A DNA stretch of 64,000 nucleotides from Octopus vulgaris (taxonomy: Eukaryota): NCBI GenBank assembly GCA_951406725.2, contig OX597834.1, positions 41,478,001 through 41,542,000 of the forward strand, read 5' to 3'. Shown in pieces: positions 4,962-64,000 of this stretch; position 1 is the stretch's first letter; each line of letters begins with the position of its first letter. The position numbers and the translations under genes were made by a program. The notes beneath the pieces are model-generated. The model was not told where the DNA came from. It did not search any database and saw nothing but the letters and a program-made list of their open reading frames with translations.

Positions 4962-5398
4962 ATGGATCGAGAAGAAATAAAAGCAAGAAAACCAGTGGGA
5001 CATGTGAGACGAAGAAGACCTTTCAGGAATGGCATTCGTATACCAGCTCCCATACAGCCAGCTCCAGTGTTCTTTCCCAAAGGAGTGATAGCAGAACATG
5101 GCCAAAAACAGGTTGCTGAAATGAAAAATAAGGGCGAAAAAGAAAAGAAAGAGATGCAAGCTTTAAATAGAAAACTTACCTCCTTTCTTCAAAATATACG
5201 TTACTTAGAAGCTGAAAACAAACATCTGAAAAATAACTTGAGTGCTGAGAAGGACTTTAAATGTGATAAAATCAAGATCTTATACGAAGATCGACTGAAG
5301 GAGTTGGAAAGACTTCTAAAAGACAAAGATGTGGAACTTGCAGCTACAAAGTCCAAAAATGAATCGCTTGAAGAAGAAGTTGAAGATTTGAAAGAACA
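4962..5398 (+). CDS. IF gene 1 exon 1: head, coil 1a, start of coil 1b
   Basis: MDREE...EKEKKEMQALNRKLTSFLQNIRYLEAENKHL (IF helix-initiation-like); donor CA|gtaagt, phase 2; paralogous to 32789-33240. Confidence 0.92.
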
Positions 5399-7117: not shown

Positions 7118-7506
7118 TACTTGTTTCAGTCATTTGACTGCGGCCATATTGGAGCACCGCCTTTAGTCGAGCAACTCGACCCCGGGACTTATTCTTTGTA
7201 AGCCCAGTACTTATTCTATCGGCCTCTTTTGCCGAACCGCTAAGAGGACGGGGACATAAACACACCAGCATCGGTTGTCAAGCAATGCTAGGGGGACAAA
7301 CACAAACATACATGCACACACATATATACATATATACACATATATACGACAGGCTTCTTTCAGTTTCCGTCTACCAAATCCACTCACAAGGCTTTGGTCG
7401 GCCCGAGGCTATAGCAGAAGACACTTGCCCAAGGTGCCACGCAGTGGGACTGAACCCGGAACCATGTGGTTGGTAAACAAGCTACTTACCACACATCCAC
7501 TCCTGC
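7118..7506 (-). mobile_element. SINE family A
   Basis: Aligns to 867-1280. Confidence 0.85.
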
Positions 7507-7983
7507 TATTTAAGCTTTTATAAGAACAGCCATAGTTAATTGCAAAAGTCCATAAACACTACCTTCACAGTTCTAAGATAACACTCCAAACCACTCCTAG
7601 CTATTTTATGCAGATACGTTTGGTATCTATAAAAATACTTGGTTGCTCGAACTCTAAATTTTGATACGAAAGCGATCAAAATTGCTGATCGTATGTAAAT
7701 CCCGGATAACCAATACCTTTTACTCGAATTCCCGAAATAGCTCTGGCAGATAATTGGTACAAAACTCTCTTTCGTACGTTCACTTATCCGACCTTAAGTA
7801 TTTACAAAAATTAGACTTTACAAATATAAAATTTGTAATTAATCCAGATGTGCATTTCAATTACTTTGTGTGGTGTATAATATAATTGGCAATTTTCCTA
7901 ATCTGTCCGTTTAAAAGACACCACATGATTTCGCTGTTTTTCTGGACCAGCCACAATCATCATACTCTTCCTCTCTCTCTTTT

Positions 7984-8381
7984 ACTCTTTTACTCTTTTA
8001 CTTGTTTCAGTCATTTGACTGCGGCCATGCTGGAGCACCGCCTTTAGTCGAGCAAATCGACCCCGGGACTTATTCTTTGTAAGCCCAGTACTTATTCTAT
8101 CGGTCTCTTTTGCCGAACCGCTAAGTGACGGGGACGTAAACACACCAGCATCGGTTGTCAAGCAATGCTAGGGGGACAAACACAGACACACAAACTTATA
8201 TTTATATACATATATACGACAGGCTTCTTTCAGTTTCCGTCTACCAAATCCACTCACAAGGCATTGGTCGGCCCGGGGCTATAGCAGAAGACACTTGCCC
8301 AAGGTGCCACGCAGTGGGACTGAACCCGGAACCATGTGGTTGGTTAGCAAGCTACTTACCACACAGCCACTCCTGCGCCTA
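7984..8381 (-). mobile_element. SINE family A
   Basis: Aligns to 867-1280. Confidence 0.88.
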
Positions 8382-8640
8382 TAATGAAGCTTATCAATGA
8401 TAAACATCTTTGTTTAATAACAGATATTGTCATCGATGACTTGAATGAAGCACCATTTGTATTTCTAACGAAACATCTTAGACGGATTTGTTTTGCCCTA
8501 GCTCAGTTCCTGATAATTAAAGGCGTTCCATTTATGACAATTCCATCTTCTTTGTGACACATTTGAGTGCGATTTGTGTTATAAATGGACGACCATGAAG
8601 AATCTCCTTCTCGTTGGCTCAATCCCAATTTTCTTTTATC

Positions 8641-8917
8641 CTTTTATTCTTTTACTTGTTTCAGTCATTTGACTGCGGCCTTGCTGGAGCACCGCCTTTA
8701 GTCGAGCAAATCGACCCCAGGGCTTATTCTTTGTAAGCCTCGTACTTATTCTATCGGTCTCTTTTGCCGAATCGCTAAGTTACGGGGACATAAACACACC
8801 AGCATCGGTTGTCAAGCGATGTTGGTGTGGTGTGTGTGTGTGTGTGTGGGGGGGGGGGCAAACACAGACACAAACACACATATATATACATATACAAGAC
8901 AGGCTTCTTTCAGTTTC
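8641..8917 (-). mobile_element. SINE family A, truncated
   Basis: Tail half only. Confidence 0.8.
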
Positions 8918-8992
8918 TTACAGAAACCCCATTTTTTTTTTACTGCAGAGATTCCGAATCTGCAAAAAAATCAGCATTTCAAAAGTTTAGTC

Positions 8993-9204
8993 ACCACACC
9001 CCACACCCCCTACCACACCCCTACCACATCCCCACCCCCCTACCACATCCCCACCCCCCTGCCACACCTCACCCTACCACACCACTCCCACCACACCCCA
9101 CCCACCCCGCCCCATACCCCACCCACCCCACCCCCACCCACCCCACCCCGCCCCTACCCCACCCCACCCTGCCACCCCACCCCACCCCTGCCACCCCACC
9201 CCAC
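8993..9204. repeat. C-rich (CCCCA/CCACA)n low-complexity tract
   Basis: About 210 nt almost entirely C/A; G-runs on the minus strand. Confidence 0.9.
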
Positions 9205-9747
9205 AGTTTTTTTTTACTTTTTTAGAACTTTTTTTAGCGAAATACGCAGAAAAATACAGAGATTATGATTCTGAAAAAACAAAAATGTTTTTGTAAAATT
9301 TTAATTTTCCAAAAATAAATAAATAAACACCCTTCCCCTCCCCCAGCGTATCTGTGACAGAAAGTGAACATGTGGCGGTTGAGGGTCTTTTGGAATTAAG
9401 GGAGATATGTAAAAATGAGTTTTTTTGCACGCGTCGCGCACACACACGACAACAGCAACAAAATGACATTAAAAATTTTTTTGCTCTTTTGTATTTCGTA
9501 TTAAGAAAGTGGATCTCCGGTTTTGTTGTTGTCGTTGGAGCGTTCTTTAAAAATTGAAGATTTTCAAAAACACCAAAGACACGTTTTCAAAATTTTTATT
9601 TTCCCCCTCTCCATCCCTCTGGCAAAAAAAAAAGAAGAGGGTGTAGGATATTAAAATTTTGAAAACGCTATTCGTCGTTTAGCTGCTGTTTCTAGCACGT
9701 CAAGTTTTAATTTCTTAGCAAAACCATTTTGACTATTTCTCTGTCAG

Positions 9748-9934
9748 ATTAACACAAGTAAAGGACGAGAAAGACAGAGTGCAAGCGGAAATCGATGGAT
9801 TACACGATGAAGTTGCCCAACGCATTGCAGAGAGCGAAAACAACAGAAGGAGGGCAAGCGAACTTCAGAAGCAAGTTGATGACTTGAAGGCCAGAAATGG
9901 CATAGTGGTGAATCAACTGAGTAAACTTAGAGAG
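9748..9934 (+). CDS. IF gene 1 exon 2 (187 nt, long coil 1b)
   Basis: ctgtcag|A TTA ACA...; LTQVKDEKDRVQAEIDGLHDEVAQRIAESE...KLRE; GAG|gtacgt; same size and phase as 38790-38976. Confidence 0.92.
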
Positions 9935-10439
9935 GTACGTTGCAATGCTTTGAAGTAATCTCACACATATACACACACACGCACACACATACACCTCCTA
10001 CACGCACGCACACGCACGCACACACACACACACACACTCACACACACACACATACATATATACGACGGGCTTCTTTCAGTACTATATGTGGTACTGGTGT
10101 ATTTCTATCTTCTACGTCTATTTCCTAATTAGTACGGCTAATGCTTCGTTTATGAGGAGATACTCTTGTATTTTTCTAAGTGATGGGTCCACCGGGTGCT
10201 TTGACAAAATGTGGATGTCAATTCGGCCCAGTGTGCCACAATGTTGGTGTCTGGGATGTTGATAGAGTATGGAGGACTGTTTCTTGTCACTGTATTCTCT
10301 CCCGTGCTCGTTTAGTCTTTCCGCTATACACCAAGAAGTCTCCCATTTTATGCAGTGTTTCTGTCCTTACATGCCACGCAGTTCTCCAGTCGCACCTTCA
10401 TCGGCGGGATGGTTGAACCCAATGTAGTCCGTGAACTGG

Positions 10440-10690
10440 GGTCAGCTCTCGCCTATTGGACTGTTGAAGGAATAATCCTTTTCCCATACGAAGGAGTTAA
10501 ATCCCTAATCTGGGACACGGCGGCCCGCGATATTTTCCCCTCCTCCAGCCTTGTCGCATCGACTGCAAATCTGTATTTCGCCCTCCTTAAAGAAGAGGAG
10601 AGGAAGTTAAACAAATACTAGAGCTTAAATGAACTCTATCTCTTTTTGCCGGTCGCCGTCGAGATCTCAGGTGTTTTTTGAACCCCGCAC
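10440..10690 (+). mobile_element. Degenerate non-LTR retrotransposon fragment (CRE-like restriction-endonuclease domain)
   Basis: EGIILFPYEGVKSLIWDT...EERKLNKY*..FLPVAVEISG resembles the PDG..P..G..LxWD..E..K..KY..FxPxAxETxG motif; internal stop. Confidence 0.55.
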
Positions 10691-10971
10691 TGCTCTAAAG
10701 AATAACGCATTGTCGCCTATCATATTATGAATAGTCTCCTTGCAAAGTGCCCTAACCCTAAAACGTCGGTTATTAAAGTACTGCATAAACTTCTAATAAC
10801 AGTGTGTGCGTATGGGGGTGGAGGGTAGGGGCAACACCAAAATAGTTCCTATGCGAACCGATTTCACTTTTCTTATTTTTGTACTTCATCTTCCGTCCAG
10901 GATTAATTATTGATGTAAAGCGTACTTTTCGAAAAATAAAGATGAAAGTATTTTTTAAATCTTTTCTGTAG

Positions 10972-11067
10972 GAACTAGAAATGGAAACTAGTGAGAGATT
11001 GGAATTAGCAGACTGTGCCGCGATGCTGGAAGACGAACTCTCTTTCAATTATGATATCCATGATGCC
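10972..11067 (+). CDS. IF gene 1 exon 3 (96 nt)
   Basis: tgtag|GAA; ELEMETSERLELADCAAMLEDELSFNYDIHDA; GCC|gtaatg; paralog 42839-42934. Confidence 0.9.
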
Positions 11068-11149
11068 GTAATGTTGCTCTTATTTTTTCCCTTTCGTGTT
11101 ATTTTCTTTTTTTTTTTGCACGGGAATTGCCATGTAGTTTTTAGTTATA

Positions 11150-11545
11150 TCTTTATATACAAAAGTGAGGTTGTGTGTTGTCTGTCTCCTACGATTTAGA
11201 TTCCTAACTACTCCCACATTTTGCGGTGCAGTTTAACCAAAACCGGGTATCTTATAGTCGTGATTCATATCGAGCCCTTCTGGGTATTAGCGCGCGTCTA
11301 CGATGAGTCTACGATTTAAAAAAAAATTACCATCAATTTTTCCCATTTTTAATGCTTTTTTGGCATATATAAGGGAAGTAAATCTCTAAAAATTTATTAT
11401 TAAATGTCAGAACGTAAAAAGCTACAGTAACCCCCCCCCCTTTGTGGTTAGCCGTATTGAGATGGCTATTATACTTTACATCTCTAAAAATGCTTATATA
11501 GTTATTTCCCTTACAAACCCGAGCAATGCCGGGCGATACTGCTAG
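11150..11545 (+). mobile_element. Non-autonomous Helitron-like element in gene 1 intron 3
   Basis: TC...hairpin...CTAG at an A|T site; the paralogous gene 2 intron 3 (around 43005) lacks it. Confidence 0.85.
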
Positions 11546-11754
11546 TTCTTTTATAAATTCCTCACGGTGTTTACAACTTCCTGGAATCAGGTTGCGTCAA
11601 TTTCGCAATCAAAGGATCAATACTTTTCAAGAGATAAGTTACAACTATCTCAGTAAGCTGATAGTTAGGAAACGTTCAAGAAAACCAGTTAGATCTGCCT
11701 GAAATAATATCAGATTTTCCAGTGATTTCATGAGCCTGGTAAGATTTGATCGTG

Positions 11755-12045
11755 AGGGCGCGTGGCTTAGTGGTTAGGGCATTCGGCTCATGATCGTAAG
11801 GTTGTGAGTTCGATTCCCGGCGACGCGTTGTGTCCTTGAGCAAGACACTTTATTTCACGATGAGTTGTACTTGTATTTCAAAGGGTCAGCCTTGTCACTC
11901 TCTGTGTCACGCTGATTATCCCCGAGAACTACGTTAAGGGTACACATGTCTGTGGAATGCTCAGCCATTTGCACGTTAATTTCACGAGCAAGCTGTTCCG
12001 TTGATCGTATCAGCTGGGACCCTCGTCGTCGTAACCGGCGGAGTC
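11755..12045 (+). mobile_element. tRNA-derived SINE (family B-related)
   Basis: ggcgcgtggcttagtggttaggg head; tail shared with family B. Confidence 0.8.
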
Positions 12046-12195
12046 TTTTTAAAGATTTTGATCAGGTTCCAAAAGACGAGGTGCCCGCCAAGCAGAAACT
12101 TTCGTCGGTGCCTCCTATCCCGATACCGAATCTGCAGTCACTTATGGCTTGATCACTTCTCTATAGCTAGAATACTTATCTCTCAAAATGACACA

Positions 12196-12620
12196 TAGGC
12201 GCAGGAGTGGCTGTGTGGTAAGTAGCTTGTTTACCAACCACATGATTCCGGGTTCAGTCCCACTGCGTGGCACCTTGGGCAGGTGTCTTCTACTATAGCC
12301 TCGGGCCGACCAAAGCCTTGTGAGTGGATTTGGTAGACGGAAACTGAAAGAAGCCCATCGTATATATGTATATATATATATATATATATATGCGTGTGTG
12401 TGTTTGTGTGAGTGTGTTTGTCCCCCTAGCATTGCTTGACAACCGATGCTGGTGTGTTTATGTCCCCGTTACTTAGCGGTTCGGAAGAAGAGACCGATAG
12501 AATAAGTACTGGGCTTACAAAAGAATAAGTCCCGGGGTCGAGTTGCTCGACTAAAGGCGGTGCTCCAGCATGGCCGCAGTCAAATGACTGAAACAAGTAA
12601 AAGAGTAAAAGAGTAAGAGT
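12196..12620 (+). mobile_element. SINE family A
   Basis: Full head to tail; absent at the aligned gene 2 site (around 43600). Confidence 0.88.
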
Positions 12621-13280
12621 ATTACACATATCTGATTATAGATAACAACGGACAGACATCGCTAATCGCTCAGAGAAGGATTAGTATTGCTTTCATTAAT
12701 TTATTCTATCGAGTATCACTTCCTCTCAACAATTTTCGGAGTTTGGTGGGAGAATTTACTTTGATTCGACGAAGAAAGGGTTCAGTGTTGACAGCATATC
12801 TGCCCTGGCCCCGAAAAAGATGTATACCAGCAATTTGCCATAGCATTATGTTTTAAATCTACGAAATCTCAATAAAACCTAATATTAGCTTCTTAAAGTG
12901 CATCGAAATGGCAGAATCTTTACCACACCGGTTTAGCGTCAATGTAATCGGCTTAGGCCCCTACATCCAAACAATTGCTGGCCTTTTGCGAACATTTGAA
13001 ACCAATATTGGCATTCTAACAAAGGCGGAATTGTTAGGAACCAAATAAAATGCTTAGCAGCATTTCGTTCAAATTTACGATGAGAGGTCACACTCCGCCG
13101 AGATGGACATTGCCTTTAATCCTCCCAGGGTCGATAAAATAAGAACCAGCTGAGTATTGAAATCAATTTAATCGACTTACCACACCACCGAATTTGCTGA
13201 CTTCGTGTCAAAATTTGAAACCAATAGTTGCCTTCTAATCTCCGTTTTTCCAATTGTTTTGTTTTAAATACTATTTGCAG

Positions 13281-13445
13281 GAGGTCAAGGAATTGAAGGC
13301 GATGATATCAAAATTGAAGAAGATACCCGATTTCGATGAAACACGGAAGACCGAAATTGGAAATTTAGTTGCTGATTTAAGCGCTCAGTATGAGGACAAG
13401 TTGAGAAAAGCTACTGCTGATATGGAAAGAAGATACGCGAAACAG
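13281..13445 (+). CDS. IF gene 1 exon 4 (165 nt, L12/coil 2 start)
   Basis: ttgcag|GAG; EVKELKAMISK...LSAQYEDK...RRYAKQ; CAG|gtaaag; paralog 43946-44110. Confidence 0.92.
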
Positions 13446-13475
13446 GTAAAGAAATATATAGTAAGATCAAATATG

Positions 13476-13887
13476 CGCGGGAGTGGCTGTGTGGTAAGTA
13501 GCTTGCTAACCAACCACATGGTTCCGGGTTCAGTCCCACTGCGTGGCATCTTGGGCAAGTGTCTTCTGCTATAGCCCCGGGCCGACCAATGCCTTGTGAG
13601 TGGATTTGGTAGACGGAAACTGAAAGAAGCCTGTCGTATATATGTATATATATGTGTATATATGTATGTATGTGTTTGTGTGTGTGTGTTTGTCTCCCTA
13701 GCATTGCTTGACAACCGATGCTGGTGTGTTTACGTCCCCGTCACTTAGCGGTTCGGCAAAAGAGACCGATAGAATAAGTACTGGGCTTACAAAAGAATAG
13801 GTCCCGGGGTCGAGTTGCTCGATTAAAGGCGGTGCTCCAGCATGGCCGCAGTCAAATGACTGAAACAAGTAAAAGAGTAAAGAGAGT
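13476..13887 (+). mobile_element. SINE family A
   Basis: Aligns to other copies; begins 30 nt after the exon 4 donor. Confidence 0.87.
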
Positions 13888-14087
13888 ATGCTTTAAACAG
13901 TTGGAAAATTAACCTTATAAAATCTGTTTGTTCTCCTGGTACTTCAGATAATATCAGCCACATTGTTGAGAATGTTTATATGCATTGTACAAAAGAACAA
14001 ATACAGTTGGATGCTTTGAAACAGTTGGAAAACTAACCGTATATATTGTTTGTTCTTCTGATGTTTTGTCGTTTTGTAATCCGCAAA

Positions 14088-14518
14088 TCTCTCTCTGTAT
14101 AAACGGCAGTTTGTCTGTCTGTGTGTCTGTGTGTCTGTCAGGTTGTACCCTCACCCTGACCACGGCTTTCAACCGATTCTGATGAAACTTGACACACACA
14201 TAGCCCAATCTCATAATTCAAAACTAACGCAGCGAAAATTTTGAAAAGCTCCCCCAGTTCTGAAAAAAATCGATAAATTCGACATGGGGTCGAGAATCTA
14301 AGCTTTTTACATTTTCTGTCTAGGGGACACAACTCGACCTTTTTATCGCCCAAAGGGACAGCTAGGAATATCGTATACACAGAAGTATTCGAGTGAAGAG
14401 AAAACATTGCAACCTACACATGCGCCTTCGTTCCCTAGAGGGAAACGACTAGATTGGGATTAGTCGTTGCCTACTAGCGGCTCTTACATACCCAGGCAAC
14501 GCCGGGCTATGCTGCTAG
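14088..14518 (+). mobile_element. Helitron-like element, second family
   Basis: TC start; cccaggcaacgccggg hairpin + CTAG|T end. Confidence 0.7.
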
Positions 14519-14717
14519 TCTTCTATAAATCCACGGAAAATGGCTTTCAATTGAAACATTTGAAGAGCCTTACTTACCATACTTTAGTATACTGTAGTAT
14601 AGTTACAGGAAGAACGTAGACACATTTCACCTTATTTCAGATAGTATGAGCCACGTTGCTGAGAAGTTTTATGCGCATTGCTATTTTCGATACCAAATTT
14701 ATATTCAATGTGCATTG

Positions 14718-15240
14718 TACGAGGGCGGGGAGAAGATTTCATACGTGGATTATGAAGGGGAGATGCTGGAACTGTGAAATCTAGTATGCATTAATTTCAG
14801 CTCGTCTTATAAATAACATCATTGTTTCATTCCAGGTAATATGATATCTGACTGTTCAAAGAAGACTTCAAAAGTAGCTACTAGCGACTGCTCTCGAAAA
14901 TGGACAAAATTTGGCATCGTAGTGTTATTATGGACCTGCAGGAAAAGGTTTCGCCGCCCCCTTCCCGCAAGGACGTTCATTGTGGCATGGTTGCTACATT
15001 ATGAAATGGCGCTCCAGCTTTATGAACGGTGCAAAAGTAGGCAGCTGAATTTAGGAGGGGAATGGAGTGTCTTGAAGATAACCCAAATTCTAGCTGTCCT
15101 GCAATTGCTACCTCCGAGGAAAACATCGACTGTGATCACCACATGGTGATGGACGACAGGCGATTGACTATAAGCCAAATAGCCAACGGTATTAGCATAT
15201 CCAGTGAGAGAGTTGAGAATATGCTGTACATCAGGGCATA
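14718..15240 (+). mobile_element. Degenerate mariner transposon fragment
   Basis: TA|CGAGG start; frameshifted HTH remnant EENID..MVMDDRRLTISQIANGISISSERVENML. Confidence 0.75.
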
Positions 15241-15708
15241 TCCATCACGCTTGCAGAACGATGAAAGAGTTCTGCATAACACATGTTTAGTGCCCAGAAT
15301 TGCTAAGTTGTAGAAAGAGTTATGTTGCGTAGCTGTACTTATGTGAGTAACGGACTTGGTTATCAGCAGAGTCCATCGTGTAAATCAAATTGTAGCCTTC
15401 TTTCCGGGTGGAAAAGGCAATCAGTTTTATTTCGATCGCTAGGAGAAAATACAGGTTGTATACACAACGGACAGATTTGAATGGAAGAGGGCTCAGGCAA
15501 GCCCCCTTCACTTTTTTCAGGTCATTTGTAGAAGGAAAAGGAGTCCAGCAACCGTTTATGTTAATTTTACCTATTTTTGACTATTTTTTCACAATCAGTT
15601 CTGAACAACAATCCAACTATTTGTAACTTTTCCTTGTAATATCGCTTTAGCTACTGCAATTTGGAAGACAAATAAAACATAAAAATTATAATTTTATTAT
15701 CTCCATAG

Positions 15709-15804
15709 TTACAGTTAGAGAAGGCAAAAGCCAAGACCAAAGAAGATTTTATAGACCCAAGGAAGAGAAGAGATTTGGGTAAAATAAGCGAACTTGAAAC
15801 TCAG
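15709..15804 (+). CDS. IF gene 1 exon 5 (96 nt, divergent)
   Basis: ccatag|TTA; LQLEKAKAKTKEDFIDPRKRRDLGKISELETQ; CAG|gtaagg; flanks (ataattttattat upstream; gtaaggaa...tcaatc and (tcta)n downstream) match those of gene 2 exon 5. A second in-frame acceptor (acag, 6 nt downstream) is also possible. Confidence 0.8.
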
Positions 15805-15855
15805 GTAAGGAACGTTACATCAATCAACTAACCAACTAATCAGTCAATCCCTCAG

Positions 15856-15949
<94 letters not shown>

Positions 15950-16465
15950 ATCCATCCATCCATCCATCCATCTCTCTCTCTCTCTCTCTCTCTCTATGTA
16001 TCTATCTACATCTATACCAGTATACAAACCTGCGCGTATACACACACGCACACCCACACACAAATATATAAGTGTGTGTGTATGTGCGTGTGTGTGTGTG
16101 TGCGCGTGTCTGTGTGTGTGCGTTTGTGCGTTTGTGTGTGTGTGTGTGAAAGATTGAATTATATTTCGTCCTTTAATTTGGAGGATTCCCAAATCCACTT
16201 TCTACAATAGATTCTTCATCTTTTGCTGGTAGCCTAGTGGCGTAAGTTTGCGAAAATGCAAAATAATACTTGTATATGGTGTGTTATGGGAATTTATGGG
16301 AAGGCATCCCATAAAACTCAATAAATTTGTTTAAAATGGAGAAGAGAAAATATTAAAATTTAAGGGATTTTTAATTCATGCATACGATATAACTGTAAAT
16401 GTAATTTGTGACAATTATTTGGTAGCCATCGGAAAAATATGAAGCCATTTTTTCCGATGGCCAGA

Positions 16466-16522
16466 TAACTGAAGAGATGGAGGCGTGGATTTCCACCTCG
16501 GCATCCGAAACTCGGAGTTTTA
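16466..16522 (+). ncRNA. Hammerhead-ribozyme-like motif
   Basis: taa-CTGAAGA-gatg..catc-c-GAAA-ctc-g-gag-TT-tta, enclosed by a 37-bp stem (16393-16429/16525-16561). Confidence 0.55.
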
Positions 16523-16789
16523 GCATGGCTACCGAATAATTGTCACATATTACATTTACAGATAAATTCCTCGATTTACATAAAATCGAGGTCTCTTTCT
16601 GTCTTTTGTGGTCTTACCATTTTTATCAATATATATATATAATCAGTTAAGGGCTAGTTTCACCTAATAAGAATAATAATAAGAATACGGGATGTTTTGG
16701 ATACATTTCACAGTTTGCATAAAAGCAGAAGAAAATGTAATTTCCCATCGATAACTAAAAATTATTCTAAAAAATCAAAATGTTTCAAC

Positions 16790-17200
16790 TATATCATATA
16801 ATTAAAGCGATAACAATAATACTTGAAGTAGCCGCGCTCAGCTTCTGCTAAGGCCTCAAAACGGCCCCAGAACCTGCAGGTAGAACGCTAGGTGTTGCAG
16901 GTAGAACGCTTGGTGTTGCAGGTAGAACGCTTGGTGTTGCAGGTAGAACGCTTGTTGTCTCTCTCAACCGCGCCCGACGCAGTGTGATCTATGAAATTAC
17001 AATTGGGAGAATTAGAAAGACTAGAAACGGATTTTGTGAAGTCATAGAAATTCTCGAACATCCACAACAGGACCTTTCCGAAGGTCTGGCAAGGACCCCA
17101 ATCCTGCTTCCACACACATACTGCCTTCCAACAGCGACCCTCACCAGCTAGATGTTGACCAGTCTGCAGCAGCCTGACGTAGCTGTTTCAATTGAGCCTA
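16790..17200 (-). mobile_element. Degenerate Tc1/mariner-like fragment with 21-bp tandem repeat
   Basis: Minus-strand remnant PNSPNCNFID..GAVER..CNTK; an inverted partial copy lies at 17739-17909. Confidence 0.6.
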
Positions 17201-17477
17201 AGGCCCTGTTCAAAAGGGTTGGACAGCATTAAAATATTTGACTGGTTTCCAGTTCTCCATATCAGTTAACTTTTTCTAAACTTCACATTCCAACGTCTCT
17301 GATTGTTCACCAATGTAGGAAAGCATTTCTGTAAGAAAGGGAAAAATTTGTCAAATTTAGCCTAATACCCTGTAAAAAAATTGTCTCAACAGTTTTATGG
17401 TAATTAATAATTGTATAATAATTAATAATTATATATTATTTTACAATTAATAATTGCATTATTTATTGTCTTTACAG

Positions 17478-17698
17478 ATAGCAGATATGAAACGTAAAAT
17501 TACTGAACTGGAATTTCAACGGGATGAGGCCGAAAACGGACGAGAATCCGACGCTGCGAGTTACGAGGACGAGATTGCTCGCTTGCGTAGAGACTTCGAG
17601 AATGTGTTCAAGGACTTCGAAGAGCTGGCAAATGCTAAGAACTTCGCAGGGATGAAGGTGGCATCAATGCTTGCACTACTTAAAGACGTAGATAGCAG
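17478..17698 (+). CDS. IF gene 1 exon 6 (221 nt, end of coil 2, degenerate termination motif)
   Basis: ttacag|ATA; IADMKRKITELEFQ...AKNFAGMKVASMLALLKDVDS; AG|gtaaat; same size and phase as 50000-50220 and 62272-62492. Confidence 0.92.
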
Positions 17699-18254
17699 GT
17701 AAATATTAAATAAATCAGAAATATTAAATTTCTAAATATCGGGCGCGGTTGAGAGAGACACCAAGCGCTCTACCTGCAACACCAAGGCCGAAATGGTGAC
17801 CAAGATCAGGGAGGTGTTTCAAATCTTCGCAAAGATGCACTGAAGAATGCATGCGCCAGTTTTTGGGGCCGTTTTGAGGCCTTAGCAGAAGCTGAGCGCG
17901 GCTACTTCACCACTACGGTGGTGGGGCGATAGAATGGTTGTATACTGTCAATTTAACGTGACAGTAGGGGATTACACCACCGCTGTTTAGCCCTAGGAAG
18001 CATCGACGCTTCCTGATGGCTTCGACACATTTTTTTTCCTGTGTCCTTATATATTTACGAAGGGGAGACAAATACCCCCAGCAGGCAGGCCTGCATCTAG
18101 AGACACGCATGTTTCAGGATCTTTGTCCATCATCGGTCTAGAGTAGCAGACGCCTGCCAGCTGCAGATATCCGTCTCGACTTCGTAAATATATATATATC
18201 TAATATATATATATAATATAATCCCAAGATTCTGAGTTCGATTCTAGGCAGTGA

Positions 18255-18285
<31 letters not shown>

Positions 18286-18801
18286 GATAATAATAATAAC
18301 AACAACATCGAAAAATACCTTAAGAATGAGAACCCAGGTTCGGAAGGCTGGAGAGTATATCAGCCGAACCGTTATGTTAACAACAAACAAGATGAAAATA
18401 AAGTTCCATAAATAATGTACATAATTCCTCATCTCTTAAATATAGAAGTGTATTAAACATTAATGTATTTCATTTCACTCAACCCAAGCAGTCGGTGAGT
18501 GGGGAGCGAAACCACCGTCTGCTAGGTTTGCTAGGAAAAGCAGCCAGACGTAAACCTGTTCACCCGCTACACTACAATGCAACACATGTAAATTCAACGA
18601 TTTGAACGGATACGCAAAAATGACGAGATCAGCCTCGCCATAATAGACTTTTGGTGTCTAGGCTAAAATGAGAGGTTGAACGTCATCAAAGCCACATACA
18701 CGTTCAGCAATAACGAATAATAAACACTCTTCTTTCATTGAATTCACGTATTAACCTACAATATTTGTTGAGATTACATTAAATGTATCTTAATTTTGCA
18801 G

Positions 18802-19049
18802 TGAGAGTTCGAAACCGGTTGATGGACCTCAAACAGAAGGTGAGTCGGCACCTGGACCTCAAACAGAGGGTGAGTCGGCACCTGGACCTCAAACAAAAGG
18901 TGAGTCGGCACCTGGACATCAAACAGAAGGTGAGTCGGCACCTGGACCTCAAACAGAGGGTGAGTCGGCACCTGGACCTAAAACAGAAGGTGAGTCGGCA
19001 CCTGGACCTCAAACAAAAGTTGAGTCGGCACCTGGACATCAAACAAAAG
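18802..19049 (+). CDS. IF gene 1 exon 7 with in-frame GPQTEGESAP repeats; 3' end variable (18839+30k up to 19049, or GC donor after 19081)
   Basis: tttgcag|T GAG AGT; ESSKPVD(GPQTEGESAP)x8 VNALAA; homologous to gene 2 [14 protein letters not shown] and gene 3 GLQTESESAL. Confidence 0.78.
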
Positions 19050-19063
19050 GTGAGTCGGCACCT
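18824..19063 (+). repeat. Coding minisatellite, 8 x 30 bp (ggacctcaaacagaaggtgagtcggcacct)
   Basis: Eight contiguous units with 0-2 substitutions each, read directly. Confidence 0.97.
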
Positions 19064-19506
19064 GTGAACGCATTAGCAGCAGCGAGTTGCATTTGTCTTC
19101 ATCACTTCCTTCATAAAAGAATGCAACATATATACATACATACATACATACATACATACATACATACATACATACATACATACATACGTACGTACATACA
19201 TACATACATACATACGTACATACATACATACATACATACATACGTACATACATACATACATACATACATACATACATACATACGTACGTACATACATACA
19301 TACATACATACATACGTACATACATACATACATACATACATACGTACATACATACATACATACACACATACAAACATACATATAATACAAATAAGAAAAT
19401 GGAGAAACAAATTTGGTTTGTTCATCAACTTACGGATATTATATTGCTGGATTATTTATTCATGATATCTCATAGTGGGTTACACCCATAACCCCTACCT
19501 TACTTT

Positions 19507-19633
<127 letters not shown>

Positions 19634-19811
19634 GTATGTGTATATACACACAAACACACATATATACATATATATATAAATGTGTGTATTTCTCTTTCTC
19701 TCTCTCTCTCTCTCTCCCTATATATATATATGTGTGTGTATATATATATATATGTATGTGTATATACACACAAACACACATATATACATATATATATATA
19801 AATGTGTGTAT

Positions 19812-19894
<83 letters not shown>

Positions 19895-20095
19895 CATACA
19901 TATATACGTAAGTATGTGTATGTAAGTGAATGTGGTGTGCTTGAATGTGCTTGTATGTGCGTGTTATGTACCTTGGGCTATTAAATCATTGGTAAAATGG
20001 CAAGAATGATATCGTGACACAGCGTACAGGTACACAACAAGCTCATCCAGATTCAGATCCGAACATAATGAGCGAAACAGAGAAGAGAGAGAGAG

Positions 20096-20130
<35 letters not shown>

Positions 20131-20177
20131 CGAAAGATAGGAATGCAAGAGAGAAGTGAGAGAGAAAGACAGAGACA

Positions 20178-20208
<31 letters not shown>

Positions 20209-20551
20209 TGTGTGTGTGTACAATCTATTCTATTAGTATAGTAGTTCCTCAGTTATTGACACCAATAGATCGGAAGGCAAGGCCGACCCCAGGAATTTAA
20301 TCTCAGAGGGTTACAATTAGCATAAGGGAGCCTCCATAATTCTGAGGTTATTTTATTGTGTTTGTGTATACCGAGAAATCCCGGGTTCTTGCCAATAAAG
20401 AAGCGGTTTCTAGCCTAGATCCAAGGCTCCTTTATTGGAATTTCAACATCAGACATCAACAACAGGGTAAGGAACTCTTGAGAGTCAACGGCCATCCAAT
20501 AAATGTGTAATTATATATATATCTTTACTATATATCTGCCTTTTTTATATA

Positions 20552-20591
<40 letters not shown>

Positions 20592-21121
20592 ACTCCTTAT
20601 ATCAATCTTATCCAGCTTAAGGGTGTATCATGCGCGGGGACATAGAAATAATCGGACTGAATACCCGATCGCGCGGTTAAACCATTGGGAGTGAAGGACT
20701 CCTAGCCTTTGTTAGGGCATCCTTCTATGAGAAGGTAACTCAGGTAACTGGGATGACTCCGACATAAAACGTGCGGCTCAGTGGTTACCGATGATGTTGA
20801 CTTGTTCTTCTTTTCGGATCATGGCTGCTGTTGCTTAGTGAGTGGGATTGACTCAGTGCTCAGCCTTTCCTCACTTTAAAAAAAAACTCTTCTTGCACAG
20901 GCATTGCACGATAACGAGTTAAGCTTCGTGCAATGGTCATACTCGATAACGAGGGGGCAGCTACCATGTATGTTTGTTTGTATGTATGTATGTATGTATG
21001 TTTGTATGTATGTATGTGTGTGTGTGTGTGTCTGTGTATGTATATATGTACATACGTACGTAGTATGTATATATTTGACTAAGTAGGTAGCTATCAATCT
21101 ATCTACTTATCTATCAATATC

Positions 21122-21155
<34 letters not shown>

Positions 21156-21347
21156 TGTGCATGCGCGTGTGTGTGTCTATATATATATATATATATACCT
21201 GTAAATTCATATAGAAATATCTATATATATATACATGTGTGTATCTTTGTACACACACACACAAGTACATACACACACAAGCACACACACACACGTGTTT
21301 ATATATGTACAGTTTATAATATTCATACCTCTGGACATTTTCTTCAG

Positions 21348-21451
21348 AGAAAGAGACCATGAGCCGCCCTACAGAAGACTCTGTGAAAATCCTTGAAGTA
21401 GGACCCGATGGAAAATACATTCAACTTGAAGACCTTGCTGAGTTCCCAAAG
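21348..21451 (+). CDS. IF gene 1 exon 8 (104 nt, lamin-tail-like domain start)
   Basis: ttcag|AG AAA GAG; KETMSRPTEDSVKILEVGPDGKYIQLEDLAEFPK; AAG|gtaagt; paralog 54985-55088. Confidence 0.9.
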
Positions 21452-21750
21452 GTAAGTGTGCATATCGTTCTGTTCGTTTCTAAGTGTTCCTGATGACAGA
21501 TGCAATTCTGTCCTTTCATACCATTTTCTCATTCATACACTTTCACAGCCAGTTTAACGGTCATTAATACTCATCTTTGACCGCTTTCTCTTTATTTGTG
21601 TACGTAACAACGACGTTATTGTTCAGCCCCACCTTTGCTGTTTGTTCCTTCTCGAGCCATGCCTGGTTTCCTGGTTTCATTAGCGTATAGGTTCCCCAAC
21701 TGGATGGGGCGCCGGTCCGTCGCAGCTCAATGCCACTGCTTTATACAAAA

Positions 21751-22165
21751 CGGCGAGCTGGCAGAATCGTTACCACGACGGGTGAAATGCATAGCGGTAT
21801 TTTGTCTGCTGCTACGTTCTGAGTTCTAATTCCGCCGAGGTCGAATTTGCCTTTCATCCTTTCGGGGTCGATAAATTAAGTACCAGTTACGCACTGGGGT
21901 CGATGTAATCGACTTAATCACTCTGTCTGTCCTTATTTGTCCTCTCTGTGTTTTGCCCCTTGTAGGTAGTAAAGAAATAGGTATTTCGACTGTCGTTACG
22001 TTCTGAGTTCATATTCCGCCGTGGTCGACTTTGCCTTTCATCCTTTCGGGGTCGATTAAATAAGTACCAGTTATGCACCGTGTTCGATGTAATCGACTTA
22101 ATCCGTTTGTCTGTCCTTGTTTGTCCCCTCTGTGTTTACCCCCTTGAGGGCAATAAAGAAATAGG
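21751..22165 (+). mobile_element. SINE family C, tandem dimer
   Basis: cggcgagctggcagaatcgtta...gagttc(t)aattcc head; body repeated twice. Confidence 0.85.
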
Positions 22166-22188
22166 AAACCGCAGCAAATCTTCACCCG

Positions 22189-22237
<49 letters not shown>

Positions 22238-22383
22238 ACATACACACATACACATGCACGCACGCAAACATGGAAATCTATTTTACCTCTGTAATATTCA
22301 ATGATACTTTGCCAACCCGCATAATTCATCATTATCAATATTCCTTTTCTACTGTCTAATGCATATGCTCTTTCTAATCGTAG

Positions 22384-22494
22384 GGTGCAACAAACATGAA
22401 GAACTGGACATTGACGCAAACCCTTGACAATGGCAAGAGCCGCACCCATATATTTACCAATGGTAACGTGTTTGGTGCTAGCAAAATTGTCAAA
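22384..22494 (+). CDS. IF gene 1 exon 9 (111 nt, tail domain)
   Basis: cgtag|GGT; GATNMKNWTLTQTLDNGKSRTHIFTNGNVFGASKIVK; AAA|gtaagt. Confidence 0.9.
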
Positions 22495-22512
22495 GTAAGT
22501 ATGTGTTATTTT

Positions 22513-22612
22513 TAATGTTTATTATCTTTATGTTTATTATTTTTATGTTTATTATTTTTATGTTTATTATTTTTATGTTTATTATTTTTATGTTTATTAT
22601 TTTTATGTTTAT
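22513..22612. repeat. 15-bp tandem repeat (atgtttattattttt) x ~6-7
   Basis: Read directly. Confidence 0.9.
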
Positions 22613-22721
22613 TACTATGTCGATAATAGAGAAGGCGACCTAGTGACAGGAATGGAATACCGTGTGTATCGACTACTGGGAGCATGCATGCCCTGTAACA
22701 ATATAGAGTAATATTAGTTCT

Positions 22722-23128
22722 TGTTTCTTTATTGCCCACAAGGGGCTAAACATTGAGGAGAGAAACAAGGACAAACAAAGGGGTTAAGTCGATTATATCG
22801 ACCCCAGCGCGTAACTGGTACTTAATTTATCGACCCCGAAAGGATGAAAGGCAAAGTCGATCTCGGCGGAATTTGAACTCAGAACGTAGCGGCAGACGAA
22901 ATACCCATTTCTTCACTACCCACGAGGGGCTAAACACAGAAAGGACAAACAAGGGCAGACAAACGTATTAAGTCGATTACATCGACCCCAGTGCGTAACT
23001 GGTACTTATTTAATCGACCCCGAAAGGATGAAAGGCAAATTCGACTTCGGCGGAATTTGAACTCAGAAAGTAAGGGCAGACAAAATACCGCAAAGCATTT
23101 CGTCCGACGTGCTAACGGTTCTACCAGT
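22722..23128 (-). mobile_element. SINE family C, tandem dimer (inverted relative to 21751)
   Basis: Reverse complement of family C. Confidence 0.85.
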
Positions 23129-23275
23129 AATAGTCTATTGTTTCTGATAGGTTAACAGTAATATTTCTTCTTTCATTCCGTTGATCCATGATGAGAATGA
23201 AATGTAAGGGGAATAAGAGGAGAAGGAGGAAATAATTCATTTGCTTTCTACTTGTGTTGCTAAACCTGTGTGTAA

Positions 23276-23670
23276 TCTTTATATACAAAAGTGAGGTTGT
23301 GTGCTGTCTGTCTCCTACGATTTAGATTCCTAACTATTCCCACATTTTGCGGTGCAGTTTAACCAAAACTGGGTATCTTATAGTCGTGATTCATATCGAG
23401 CCCTTCTAGGTATTAGTGCGCGTCTACAATGAGTCTACGATTTAAAAAAAAATGACCATAATTTTTCCCATTTTTAATGCATTTTTGGCATATATAAGGG
23501 AAGTAACTCTCTAAAAATTTATTACTAAATCTCAGAACGTAAAAAGCTACAGTAACACCCCCCCCTTTGTGGTTAGCCATATTGAGATGGCTATTATACT
23601 TTACATCTCTAAAAATGCTTATATAGTTATTTACCTTACAAACCCGAGCAACGCCGGGCGATACTGCTAG
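23276..23670 (+). mobile_element. Non-autonomous Helitron-like element
   Basis: Near-identical to 11150-11545. Confidence 0.85.
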
Positions 23671-24175
23671 TCTATGTCTATATTAGTTGTATTAAAATCA
23701 TGAACAGTTAATTCAAAATGGATGCTACCTCTCTGACCTCTGCAGTAAACACGGACAAAAAACAGTTGCTAATCATTCTGTGAACAGTCAAAATTGTAAG
23801 AGTATCGGACACAATGCCTAGTGTTATTCATTCCACCTCTTCTTAGTTCAAATTCTGCTAAGATCGAATTTACTTTTCAGCCGTCTGAGGTTGATTAATC
23901 TTCTAAACTTTTTGCCTTGGCAGAATCGTTAAAGTATCCGAAAAATACGCTTTGACATTTATTTCCGGCTTTTTATTCGCATTTTGAAGTCATGAAGTAG
24001 TCAACTGTTCCGTCTCCCACTTCGATTTTATCAAATAAAATTACTAGTGAAGAACTGGAGTCCATGTAATCGACTAAAACTCTGTTTCATAGTTCTTACA
24101 TTGTGTCTCAGAAGAAATATGACTTTCGTTGGTGATGCTGTTACTATAATCACATTTTTTTGTTTTCATTTTTAG

Positions 24176-24283
24176 ATTTGGGGATCAAAACACGGTGCTG
24201 GGCAAGATGGAATCACATCTTCTGAGGTCACTGAATGGGATACATCAAAATCGACAATTTCTTTGAAAGACAACGAAAATATG
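24176..24283 (+). CDS. IF gene 1 exon 10 (108 nt, tail domain)
   Basis: tttag|ATT TGG; IWGSKHGAGQDGITSSEVTEWDTSKSTISLKDNENM; ATG|gtaaga. Confidence 0.9.
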
Positions 24284-24615
24284 GTAAGATTTCTTAATTT
24301 AGTGCTTTAACACCCAACATTTTCTCTCAGACTTTTCTCACTAGATCTTCAGTACATTACTCTAAGTTCGAGAGTTGATCTATGTAGTCATCCGGGTCTC
24401 CGTGTGGATATCATATTCTCTTTAACCTGTTTCAGTCATTTGACTGTGGCCATGCAGGAGCACCACCTTTAGCCGACCAAATCGACACCAGGACTTATTC
24501 TTTGTAAGCCTAGTACTTATTCTATCGGTCTCTTTTGCCGAACCGCTAGATTACGGGGGAGTAAACACACCAGCGTTGGTTGCCAAGCGATGTTTGGGTG
24601 ACAAACACAAACACA

Positions 24616-24669
<54 letters not shown>

Positions 24670-24686
24670 CATATATATATACATGC

Positions 24687-24746
<60 letters not shown>

Positions 24747-24834
24747 AAGGGTGAAAAGGAACACACGAGCTGATATATATGAAAAAACAAGTCAAAAAAT
24801 AGAAAATGCTAAAATAATTTTATAGTGAACATTT

Positions 24835-24872
24835 CAGTACCGGTTTCGGTCATTTTGAGACCTTTTCAACTG
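24835..24872 (-). ncRNA. Minimal hammerhead ribozyme (U3-A8 variant) in the Penelope terminal repeat
   Basis: Reverse complement of 26930-26967. Confidence 0.7.
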
Positions 24873-26929
24873 TAACGATTAAATAATTAAATTTAGAAAA
24901 ATTAGAAGAAAAGTTTTTTTAAAGGAATATTTCTATAGTAGTGTTCAGATATAAGTGGCATTCTGCCTTTCTCTGACTCCCTTGTTTGCACTTGTGTGTT
25001 GGAGGTCGTTGTGAGTTCTTGGTAGGGTAGTAGAAGAAGAAGGCTGATGAGGAAAGGGGGTGGGAAAATCTGGGAGTGCCCTGATGGTCGTATTTTGAAT
25101 GGTCAGTGGCGGCTAGCAGTCGCAGTTCAATTCAGGAGAATATTTCTATTGAAAGGCTTGTTTATGGAATTTGCGTAGGTGTTATACTAAAAAACATTTG
25201 TGACAAAGTTAAGGGGTAGAAGGTGGAGAAGTAGAAGAAGAAGAAGAAGAAGAAGAAGAAGAAGAAGAAGAAGATGATGATGATGATGATGGTGGTGATG
25301 ATGATGAAGAAGAAGAAGAAAAAGGAGGAGAAGATGATGATGATGATGATGGTGGTGATGATGATGACGACGATGATGATGATAATGATGATGATGAAGA
25401 AGAAGAAAAAAACAGAGAAGGGAGAATATGAATGGGTGAAAGTAGTGAGGTGTTGTATGACTTGAAGTTGGCATGTTATGGAGTATAGCTGTGATTGGGG
25501 CTGATTAGTAATGGATTCTTTGGAATGTAATATTTGTGTGTGTATATTTCTTTTATTCTAAAGTTGAGGTATATTAATTGTTTGTCGTAGACCCGTTAAG
25601 AAGTGGCCTGTATTTTGTAATAAAGAGAGTTTCTTTACTTATTCGTTGTCTCGAGGTTGTATCGTCCCTAAATTGGTAGAGGGGAAAATCCTGAAGCTTG
25701 GTGTTTTTTTGTTGGCGCAAGTATCTATGTATTGGCTAAAAGCTATTTTTCTGTTTTGGGGAATTTTTATCTGGGATCTGTGCGGGGCCATTCGTTTACG
25801 CAAACTATTTTTTGTTTGGCCTATGTACTGCTCTTGACACCCGGAGCAAGTTAGTGAGTATATTAGGTTCTCCGAAGCACATGTGAAGTTGCTTTTCACT
25901 GTAAACCGTTGTCCCTGTTTGAAGGAGAACTCTGATCCCTCAATTAGATAGTCGCATATCCCGCAATTGGGTCTTCCACATTTTTTTACTGTCGGCTTCT
26001 GTGTTGAAGAGTGAATTCGGGCTTGTGTTAGGAGACTTTTCATGGATTTAGGCTGTCTCTTGCTTTTTATGATCGTGTGTGTTTGGAGGATTGTGTTCAT
26101 TCTGTGGTCTTTTTTTAGGAGGGGTATGTTGTGGAGGATGGTGCCGAAGGCTTCGTTATTGAGAGGGTTGTGTGTGGAGATGTATGGTAAGGCTTTTGGT
26201 TGTAAGTTTTTCTTTGATTTGGGATGTCTCAGTTCCTTGATGTTAAGTTGAAGGGCACGTTGAATGCACTTGTCAATAAGTGAAGGTGGATAGTTCCTGG
26301 CGATTAGGGTATCTTTTAGTTCTTGTAGTCGTGTGTCTCTGGTGTTTGCGTTAGAGACTATAGTGCATATCCTTTTTGCTAGATTGAAGGGGATATTCAT
26401 CCTGGTGTGTCTGGGGTGGCATGAATTGAATGGAAGATATTGCTTAGAGTCTGTAGGCTTATAATATATGTCTGTTTCTATTATATTATTAGCTTTCTTC
26501 TTCATCATCATCATCATCAACATCGTCATCATCTTCTTCTTCTTCTTCTTCTTCTTCTTCTTCTTCTTCTACTTCTCCACCTTCTACCCCTTAACTTTGT
26601 CACAAATGTTTTTTAGTATAACACCTACGCAAATTCCATAAACAAGCCTTTCAATAGAAATATTCTCCTGAATTGAACTGCGACTGCTAGCCGCCACTGA
26701 CCATTCAAAATACGACCATCAGGGCACTCCCAGATTTTCCCACCCCTTTCCTCATCAGCCTTCTTCTTCTACTACCCTACCAAGAACTCACAACGACCTC
26801 CAACACACAAGTGCAAACAAGGGAGTCAGAGAAAGGCAGAATGCCACTTATATCTGAACACTACTATAGAAATATTCCTTTAAAAAAACTTTTCTTCTAA
26901 TTTTTCTAAATTTAATTATTTAATCGTTA

Positions 26930-26967
26930 CAGTTGAAAAGGTCTCAAAATGACCGAAACCGGTACTG
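26930..26967 (+). ncRNA. Minimal hammerhead ribozyme (U3-A8 variant) in the Penelope terminal repeat
   Basis: cag-TTGAAAA-ggtc-tcaaaat-gacc-GAAA-ccgg-TA-ctg: stems I and II pair, stem III is the palindrome ACCGGT. Confidence 0.7.
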
Positions 26968-27016
26968 AAATGTTCACTATAAAATTATTTTAGCATTTTC
27001 TATTTTTGACTTGTTT

Positions 27017-27086
<70 letters not shown>

Positions 27087-27348
27087 GACGGGCTTCTTTC
27101 AGTTTCCGTCTACCAAATCCACTCACAAGGCTTTGGTTGGCCCGAAGCTATAGTAGGTGCCACGCAGTGGGACTGAACCTGGAACCATGTGGTTGGTAAG
27201 CAAGCTACTTACCACACAGCCACTCCTGCGCCTATGAAAAAGGTACTATATAAAATGTACAAACATTATTTATGAAGAAAAGAGCGCAACCAAATCTCTA
27301 ACTGAAGCATCAGTTCCATATGCCTTTGTCGAACAATCTTAATTTTAG

Positions 27349-27733
27349 TGGAAGCACTCCGTCGGTTACGACGATGAGGGTTCCGGTTGATCCGAATCAA
27401 CGGAACAGCCTGCTCGTGAAATTAACGTGTAAGTGGCTGAACACTCCACAGACACGTGCACCCTTAACGTAGTTCTCGGGGATATTCAGCGTGACACAGA
27501 GAGTGACAAGGCCGGCCCCTTGAAATACAGGTACAACAGAAACAGGAAGTAAGAGTGAGAGAAAGTTGTGGTGAAAGAGTACAGCAGGGATCACCACCAT
27601 CCCCTGCCGGAGCGTCGTGGAGCTTTTAGGTGTTTTTGCTCAATAAACACTCAGAACGCCCGGTCTGGGAATCGAAACCGCGATCCTATGACCGCGAGTC
27701 CGCTGCCCTAACCACTGGGCCATTGCGCCTCCA
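27349..27733 (-). mobile_element. SINE family B
   Basis: Reverse complement of 1650-2030; gaacaatcttaa occurs on both flanks (TSD-like). Confidence 0.87.
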
Positions 27734-28206
27734 CGAACAATCTTAAGACTCAGGGCAGTCAGTAGTATGTAATAAGACTGATACAGTTCACTGCTTTAAG
27801 TAGGAACGTGACTTTAATACTGACAATTAATGGGAATATTTCATGAACTTGCTGCAAAAGCAATGATTTTAATACTTTTTATCATAGTGATGTGTTTTTG
27901 TTTTAGCACACAATAAACATACAAGTCTCATATGAAACATCGTAAATCCGCTAAACAGAACGTATTCTGATTCTAATGTGAAAGAAATAATATGTAGTTA
28001 AAATAGCTTATAAAGTAATTAAGTCTAGCTTGCTAGCGCAAAGATCAGATTCAAAATATTCTAATTACGAGTCAATACTTAAAAGTTCTGTGTATATTTT
28101 CGAGGCAAGGGCTAGAATGAATCTCCGGAGTACACTGTTTAATTCCTTAATAGATCATGAATCTCCCTCTTTATTCATTGGTTTCTTAATTTTTTCCACT
28201 TTTCAG

Positions 28207-28230
28207 GAACATGATGTCCTTGTTAAATAA
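28207..28230 (+). CDS. IF gene 1 exon 11 coding part (EHDVLVK*)
   Basis: ttttcag|GAA; intron end and downstream UTR align with gene 2 58726 onward; no CaaX. Confidence 0.82.
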   Translation, partial: EHDVLVK

Positions 28231-51409: not shown

Positions 51410-51492
51410 AATTAGTTCAGCTCTTAGCAGCTTTGGTGGATTTCAAACAGAGGGTGAGTCTGCTCTCGCGAACGCACTATCTCTACCTGGAA
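51410..51492 (+). CDS. IF gene 2 exon 7 (83 nt; alternative in-frame donor after 51453)
   Basis: ttacag|A ATT; [27 protein letters not shown]; GGA A|gtgagt, phase 1; paralog 63884-63963. Confidence 0.85.
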
Positions 51493-51551
51493 GTGAGTGG
51501 CATTTGGTTTCTTCAGCACTTTTTTCATCAAAAATTAAAACAGATATTCTC

Positions 51552-63963: not shown

Positions 63964-64000
63964 GTGAGTTGCATTTCTCTTCTGTATATTATATACATAT

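Follow-up and report, generated by a model that had tools for sequence, protein, structure and literature searches.

Minisatellites that repeat a splice donor from unit to unit have been described in several human genes. In the part of PMC1557585 cited here, a monomer holding a donor is reported for the 37-bp VNTR of F7 IVS7, the 31-bp VNTR of CBS IVS13, and the 100-bp and 81-bp repeats of lamin B2 and PDGF, respectively, the most upstream donor alone being used in F7, lamin B2 and PDGF, and the first together with two more in CBS. The intron-2 minisatellite of IFI6 (6-16) has 25 copies, each carrying a donor, and use is made of the authentic donor and of the two that follow it (PMC1557585, same part); three mRNAs encoding different isoforms are mentioned for this gene in the portion of PMC4526556 used here. 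Following a related track, internal tandem repeats in recently duplicated human genes are stated, in the relevant passages of PMC2812944, to change exon-intron structure, to encode amino acid repeats and to activate cryptic splice sites.

We report on an array of this kind in Octopus vulgaris. The window, i.e. the whole stretch of DNA analysed, comprises 64,000 nucleotides of the forward strand (assembly GCA_951406725.2, contig OX597834.1, positions 41,478,001 to 41,542,000), and coordinates refer to it unless the contig is named. In exon 7 of a cytoplasmic intermediate filament (IF) gene, gene 1, seven of the eight units of a minisatellite hold a 5' splice site, which places the locus in the donor-reiterating class of F7, CBS, IFI6 and lamin B2. 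Copy number is variable in F7, CBS, lamin B2 and PDGF and may be so in octopus, the proteins of two sister species showing eight and seven units; lamin B2 is also a gene of the IF family. By contrast, the arrays of these four human genes, as far as the cited part describes them, are essentially intronic, whereas that of octopus is mostly exon and is translated; the 5'-to-3' scanning rule proposed for F7 does not describe it, and the outcome appears to be the opposite of the first-donor rule. If several octopus donors are used, the locus would be like IFI6, where donors likewise lie in repeated units. However, IFI6, in the portions cited, uses its first three donors, whereas in octopus translation continues through the first donors, the annotated exon ends lying at units 3, 6 and last; the octopus steps measure 10 aa each and add up to at most 70 aa, and the donor of the ancestral exon, unlike that of IFI6, lay 3' of the array and is lost. 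The cases in the cited passages of PMC2812944 mostly make new introns inside the repeat, whereas octopus presents a ladder of donors facing one distant acceptor. Donor-reiterating minisatellites are already known, then; what is new here is a mostly exonic, translated array, with distal donors favoured and a unit derived from a coding exon. We found no such case in the accessible portion of a catalogue of splicing-linked repeats (PMC10078293), and no earlier description of the octopus repeat in the open-access literature.

A divergent intermediate filament paralog

The gene and the exons that flank the repeat-bearing one are the following.

4962..28230, forward strand: gene 1, 11 coding exons, divergent cytoplasmic IF paralog, 598 aa with the last donor (mapping of CAI9738634.1)
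17478..17698, forward strand: exon 6, end of the rod (protein mapping; joined to exon 7 in RNA-like runs)
21348..21451, forward strand: exon 8, phase-1 acceptor and start of the lamin-type Ig tail (protein mapping, structure match)

The O. vulgaris protein CAI9738634.1 (P0010, 598 aa) matches 11 exons of the window residue for residue, exon 7 ending at the last donor. An IF rod is present (Pfam Filament PF00038, 89.7 bits for a cut-off of 40) and the family profile matches vimentin at 1.8e-31. Residues 485-598 of the predicted model superpose on the Ig domain of lamin B1 (7dtg_A; Z 13.1, rmsd 2.5, 109 aligned residues), while the C-terminus, HDVLVK, has no CaaX: the tail is of the lamin Ig type without the CaaX box. 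Between the two domains, the pLDDT is below 50 over residues 397-493, a stretch containing the repeat in full, in agreement with the proposal of an earlier note on this DNA, made from the letters alone, that the repeat forms a predicted-disordered linker between rod and tail.

The end of the rod departs from that of the family. The motif YRKLL[ED]GE is replaced by MLALLKDVD in gene 1 (17630-17698) and by MLAQLKDVD in its O. sinensis ortholog; YR[KR]LL is kept in the 12 other full-length paralog rows and missing in both gene-1 orthologs. These two also share a long branch (0.59) in a paralog tree built with two partial proteins left out. Judged from these features, gene 1 descends from the IF family as one of its paralogs, but we do not class it as a canonical filament-forming subunit; its assembly may differ from that of a normal IF subunit. 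Compared with the molluscan cytoplasmic IF proteins that databases name NF60/NF70, gene 1 agrees in its IF rod, its lamin-type Ig tail, the lack of CaaX and the position of exon 7, the last being common to the paralogs; it differs by its long branch, by the missing rod-end motif, and by a linker that reaches about 85 residues vs about 30. Our literature search found no account of squid neurofilament splicing. Protein identity with the sister species is lower in exons 6 (92%) and 8 (91%), with 94% and 93% in exons 3 and 4, and 97-100% in exons 1, 2, 5, 9 and 10-11.

The repeat array and its donors

Tandem Repeats Finder (TRF) reports a repeat of period 30 at 18823-19064 (8.1 copies, 93% matches). 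Together with inspection of the sequence, this confirms the array of eight 30-bp units, seven of them with GTGAGT, that had been described at the outset. The GTGAGT words start at 18840, 18870, 18900, 18930, 18960, 18990 and 19050; unit 7 has lost its GT. In the list below a slash marks the exon end.

18823..19064, forward strand: coding minisatellite, 8 x 30 bp (TRF, sequence; peptides)
18802..19049, forward strand: exon 7 in its longest form, ending at the unit 8 donor (protein-to-DNA mapping, RNA contigs)
18837..18845, forward strand: donor 1, AAG/GTGAGT, whose use, of which there is no sign, would leave an exon of 38 nt; read through by the peptide DVDSS...GPQTK
18867..18875, forward strand: donor 2, weaker AGG/GTGAGT, absent from annotated models
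18897..18905, forward strand: donor 3, AAG/GTGAGT, exon 7 end of the O. sinensis 548-aa model
18927..18935, forward strand: donor 4, AAG/GTGAGT, absent from annotated models
18957..18965, forward strand: donor 5, weaker AGG/GTGAGT, absent from annotated models
18987..18995, forward strand: donor 6, AAG/GTGAGT, exon 7 end of the O. sinensis 578-aa model
19017..19025, forward strand: unit 7, donor-less AAG/TTGAGT, missing in the O. sinensis proteins
19047..19055, forward strand: donor 8 (last), where exon 7 ends in the 598-aa model of O. vulgaris and in the 588-aa model of O. sinensis

With respect to the consensus MAG/GTRAGT, as given in the cited part of PMC1557585, five donors read AAG/GTGAGT (9/9) and two AGG/GTGAGT (8/9). 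A matrix derived from 36 sites, about four of them mis-picked and hence a rough guide, gives 10.4 bits to the AAG donors, 7.0 to the AGG donors and 1.6 to a GC site that lies downstream. The units are read as GPQTEGESAP with small changes, the general form being G(P/H)(Q/K)T(E/K)(G/V)ESAP. Four of the five columns that vary among units change an amino acid, and one variant destroys a donor. Unit 3 is identical to the last unit over 11 bases, or 29 with one mismatch; unit 6 shares with it just three exon-side bases. Searched against its own genome, the array returned a single match, the locus itself.

The seven donors had been said to share a phase and to join exon 8 in frame, and this is what we find: each, spliced to 21348, leaves an open frame, of 528, 538, 548, 558, 568, 578 or 598 aa. 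Such an agreement does not require seven coincidences, because a single donor sitting inside a unit of 3n bases brings both the number of donors and their common phase in one event. We also considered skipping of exon 7, which was rejected: it shifts the frame and leads to a stop at residue 416.

Loss of the ancestral donor and proposed origin of the array

The neighbouring paralogs preserve what appears to be the earlier state.

19065..19095, forward strand: remnant of the ancestral exon-7 end, its donor lost with four bases (paralog comparison)
51410..51492, forward strand: gene 2 exon 7, single motif, with a latent AGG/GTGAGT (GT at 51454) 5' of the annotated donor (GT at 51493)
63884..63963, forward strand: 'gene 3' exon 7, one copy of the motif, lacking the latent donor; the ancestral donor lies at 63964

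At each of the five paralog exon-7 ends found nearby, a phase-1 donor is retained, and a conserved intron start follows it. This intron start is also present in gene 1, which is shorter by four bases exactly at the donor. The earlier note had placed the paralog donor at 19082, where gene 1 reads gcgagt, and the site itself stands; a change of GT to GC was considered and rejected, since the site is best read as the paralog donor with a loss of four bases. The GC site is in phase 0: with the acceptor at 21348 it leads to a stop at residue 498, and the frame is kept only by way of a poor acceptor at 21350 (608 aa). As the paralog donor has lost four bases in gene 1, exon 7 must therefore end inside the array. 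That a donor of the array is the working exon end is also borne out by the four annotated ortholog models, all of which end there, and by the inclusion of exon 7 in transcripts.

The repeat had further been taken for an amplified form of a single motif in genes 2 and 3. Single copies are indeed seen in both: that of gene 2 is identical to unit 2 at 24 of 30 nt, and that of gene 3 reads GLQTESESAL. The latent AGG/GTGAGT of gene 2 (51451-51459) lies in frame 39 bases 5' of its donor, and none of the five proteins of its cluster uses it.

The paralogs thus serve as an ancestral state from which the rebuilding of an exon end may be followed: a donor is deleted, a latent coding donor takes over, and its unit is amplified into a protein repeat. 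In the putative sequence of events, the codons for E/K-G-E-S would have held a latent donor, as they do in gene 2, by chance in the old phase. Having that phase, it could replace the deleted donor. The latent site would then have become the exon end, and the surrounding 30-base unit would have been amplified by slippage or unequal crossover, either event possibly coming first.

Transcription and translation of the repeat

The RNA evidence consists of contigs of four runs aligned over 17470-19110, from exon 6 to just past exon 7, exon 8 lying outside. Three runs (X1, X4 and X9) were classed as RNA-like by the spliced joint between exons 6 and 7, not by the run record. This joint (GT..AG) is present in all three, which come from three studies, and in none of the contigs of the single DNA-like run, X17, where a contig continues into the intron and exon 7 is not covered. 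Gene 1 is transcribed and exon 7 is included, as the first proposal presupposed.

Mass spectrometry, suggested as a check of the repeat, gave a positive answer. Among the matches listed for an O. vulgaris skin-mucus proteome (PMC10138644, in part), at least five peptide matches, all from one raw file, are assigned to the ortholog, and two of them cover the array: the first (XCorr 5.37) begins in exon 6 and ends in unit 3, and the second (XCorr 6.87) extends over units 3 to 6. Translation is in the GPQTEGESAP frame. The repeat is protein, and molecules reading through donors 1-5 exist. None of the five matches listed is specific to a junction or an isoform; the junction peptides TEEKETM and EKETMSR are absent from the peptides listed, and this is no evidence, tryptic junction peptides being very short. 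A mucus peptide in the same source, LTTFLQNIR, as in O. sinensis, compares with LTSFLQNIR in the window (exon 1, 5180-5210), which may reflect an allele or a weak match (XCorr 2.24).

These data bear on the possibility that the octopus array behaves as F7 does, its first donor being real and the rest intronic, or else that the GC site at 19082 is joined to 21350. F7, lamin B2 and PDGF all use their first donor as a rule (PMC1557585, as cited), and the GC/21350 join is in frame. However, the most upstream donor is not the main one here: donors 1-5 are crossed by the listed peptides, none of the models has its exon end at donor 1, RNA contigs extend 13-19 bases beyond it in the three RNA-like runs, and one X9 contig spans donors 2 and 3 with at least 31 bases on either side. 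Past the last donor, X1 has a single contig, of depth 11 vs 760 on exon 6, which is a hint only, and the GC site has a low score. As the main product this reading is largely refuted, and we give it hardly any credence.

Probable choice among the donors

The O. vulgaris annotation has one model for gene 1. The ortholog cluster has four proteins, this model and three O. sinensis RefSeq isoforms (XP_029649220-2; 588, 578 and 548 aa) that differ just in the end of exon 7: the last unit, unit 6 and unit 3. All annotated ends fall at units that are AAG-type in the window, none at AGG-type ones. RefSeq isoform variants of this kind rest on introns seen in RNA-seq. The isoforms from 528 to 598 aa in 10-aa steps that the earlier note foresaw are supported in part, by these three predicted models at three units; the full ladder is not, donors 1, 2, 4 and 5 ending exon 7 in no annotated model.

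We think it probable that several donors are used by one allele, mostly the late ones, giving a few proteins whose predicted-disordered linker between rod and tail differs in 10-residue steps. The spliceosome tends to recognise short exons poorly, and among competing donors the one nearest to the intron is often preferred. In octopus the near-identical donors would compete, the strong ones of AAG type being those of unit 3, unit 6 and the last unit; donor 1 would be disfavoured by its 38-nt exon and the AGG donors by their weakness, so that mainly the long form would be expected, with some shorter ones. If so, the length of the repeat varies within one allele, which would mislead RNA-based genotyping of repeats.

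Rather unlikely, though well above the other alternatives, is that each allele uses one donor, the last. The array would then be a coding VNTR of the ordinary sort, and the shorter isoforms in the databases would reflect shorter alleles of the animals sequenced or misplaced reads. Units number eight in O. vulgaris and seven in the O. sinensis proteins, where the donor-less one is missing, and in X1 the contigs end at 18852 and 19021, not where simulation of the window's allele places them. Other repeat alleles exist and could mimic isoforms, and the X1 ends hint at copy-number variation within the species. The form translated in mucus, as far as the listed peptides reach, is long. The 548-aa model may be a misalignment, given the 11 bases (29 with one mismatch) that unit 3 has in common with the last unit. 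On the other hand, unit 6 shares but three, and the 578-aa model therefore cannot come from misplaced reads of the last donor: provided that O. sinensis has the codons of the window, its end needs a non-terminal donor or another allele. A single donor per allele would demand an allele ending in a unit-6-type donor, yet both reference proteins end in the GHQTK unit; four perfect upstream donors would have to stay silent, and every annotated end would happen to fall on a strong unit.

Contig depth was compared with de Bruijn simulations; it cannot rank the parts of a gene, and in it splicing is not separable from heterozygosity. Simulation from the allele of the window reproduces the X4 contig ends (18858; 18870-18948) without any branch at donor 1 or 4. 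In X4 the depth falls along the array, from 0.75 of exon 6 at units 3-4 to about 0.45 at units 7-8 (the latter inferred from a bin). Out of 150 simulations per setting, 1-6 showed a comparable fall when the last donor alone was used and 40-59 when donors 3, 6 and 8 were mixed; this is a weak hint in favour of the mix, and a short allele would give the same. In X1, 40 times deeper than X4, no fall is seen, which speaks for a single donor per allele, the last exon bin standing at 1.66 vs 0.91 simulated for the last donor alone. X9 is uninformative on depth (a 120-base contig without exit). Among the 24 contig loose ends listed, with 251 more beyond these, none lies at a donor, the listed ones being intronic interspersed repeats, and a search for short transcript-derived proteins with junctions gave one match in 7496 candidates, a fragment of a paralog.

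The array is a compact natural test of how the spliceosome chooses among near-identical donors 30 bases apart, and private base changes in each unit make most donors distinguishable in reads. Were the choice regulated, this would be a new way of tuning a cytoskeletal linker. We regard as improbable a donor choice that varies between tissues or states and thereby determines how far the Ig tail extends from the filament. The anatomy permits it, the array is kept in two species, and the protein is listed, in the part of PMC11431876 cited, as more abundant in the mucus of senescent animals, which concerns amount and not isoform. Against it, the unit variants are mostly non-synonymous (4/5 columns) and one kills a donor, the branch is long, the rod-end motif is lost, and the repeat-bearing ortholog appears, in protein searches of limited sensitivity, in two sister species only. 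The possible "splice-tunable" linker of the earlier note is thus unsupported: we see no indication of either regulation or function, human genes already provide examples of the class, and nothing in the variation between units suggests selection on a ladder. Most likely, the mix of isoforms is a tolerated by-product in a fast-evolving paralog, not a regulated device. A broader version, improbable to a very slightly lesser degree, would make the gene a young octopus IF paralog of skin mucus in which donor choice sets the distance from rod to Ig tail in 10-residue steps, varying by tissue or age, with allelic length variation added.

The surrounding locus

Gene 1 is one of some nine NF60/70-like IF paralogs or fragments that lie in tandem within 224 kb (41398001-41622000 of the contig), mostly on the forward strand and one on the reverse; no published account of this cluster was found in the open-access literature. 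A gap of 100 N at 60148-60247 separates gene 2 from 'gene 3', for which no 5' exons turned up in the vicinity. The protein CAI9738635.1 (776 aa) appears to join gene 2 to exons past the gap, and is probably an annotation fusion over collapsed paralogs.

Three open frames, 25639-26568 (reverse strand), 52889-53176 and 53610-53993, gave no Pfam match at E 0.001; by eye, they resemble retroelement remnants. In intron 1 of gene 2, the frame 33867-34271 has helix-turn-helix matches (HTH_23, 25.2 bits for a cut-off of 24.6) and is likely a fragment of a DNA transposase.

Gene 1 itself (4962-28230) looks like a mosaic. Its head is 52% identical to the P0003/P0004 group of paralogs vs 24-35% otherwise, and exons 9-11 are likewise nearer that group; exons 2 and 4 are nearer the P0005/P0007 group (65-66% vs 50-52% for exon 2). 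Gene conversion or unequal crossover is a possible source of this pattern. Finally, exon 9 (22384-22494, 111 nt, phase 0-0) is flanked by two arms of 410 nt, 21758-22167 and 22718-23127. Editing, skipping or circularisation may be envisaged here, since the arms are 87% complementary and could pair in the pre-mRNA as a long duplex around the exon.
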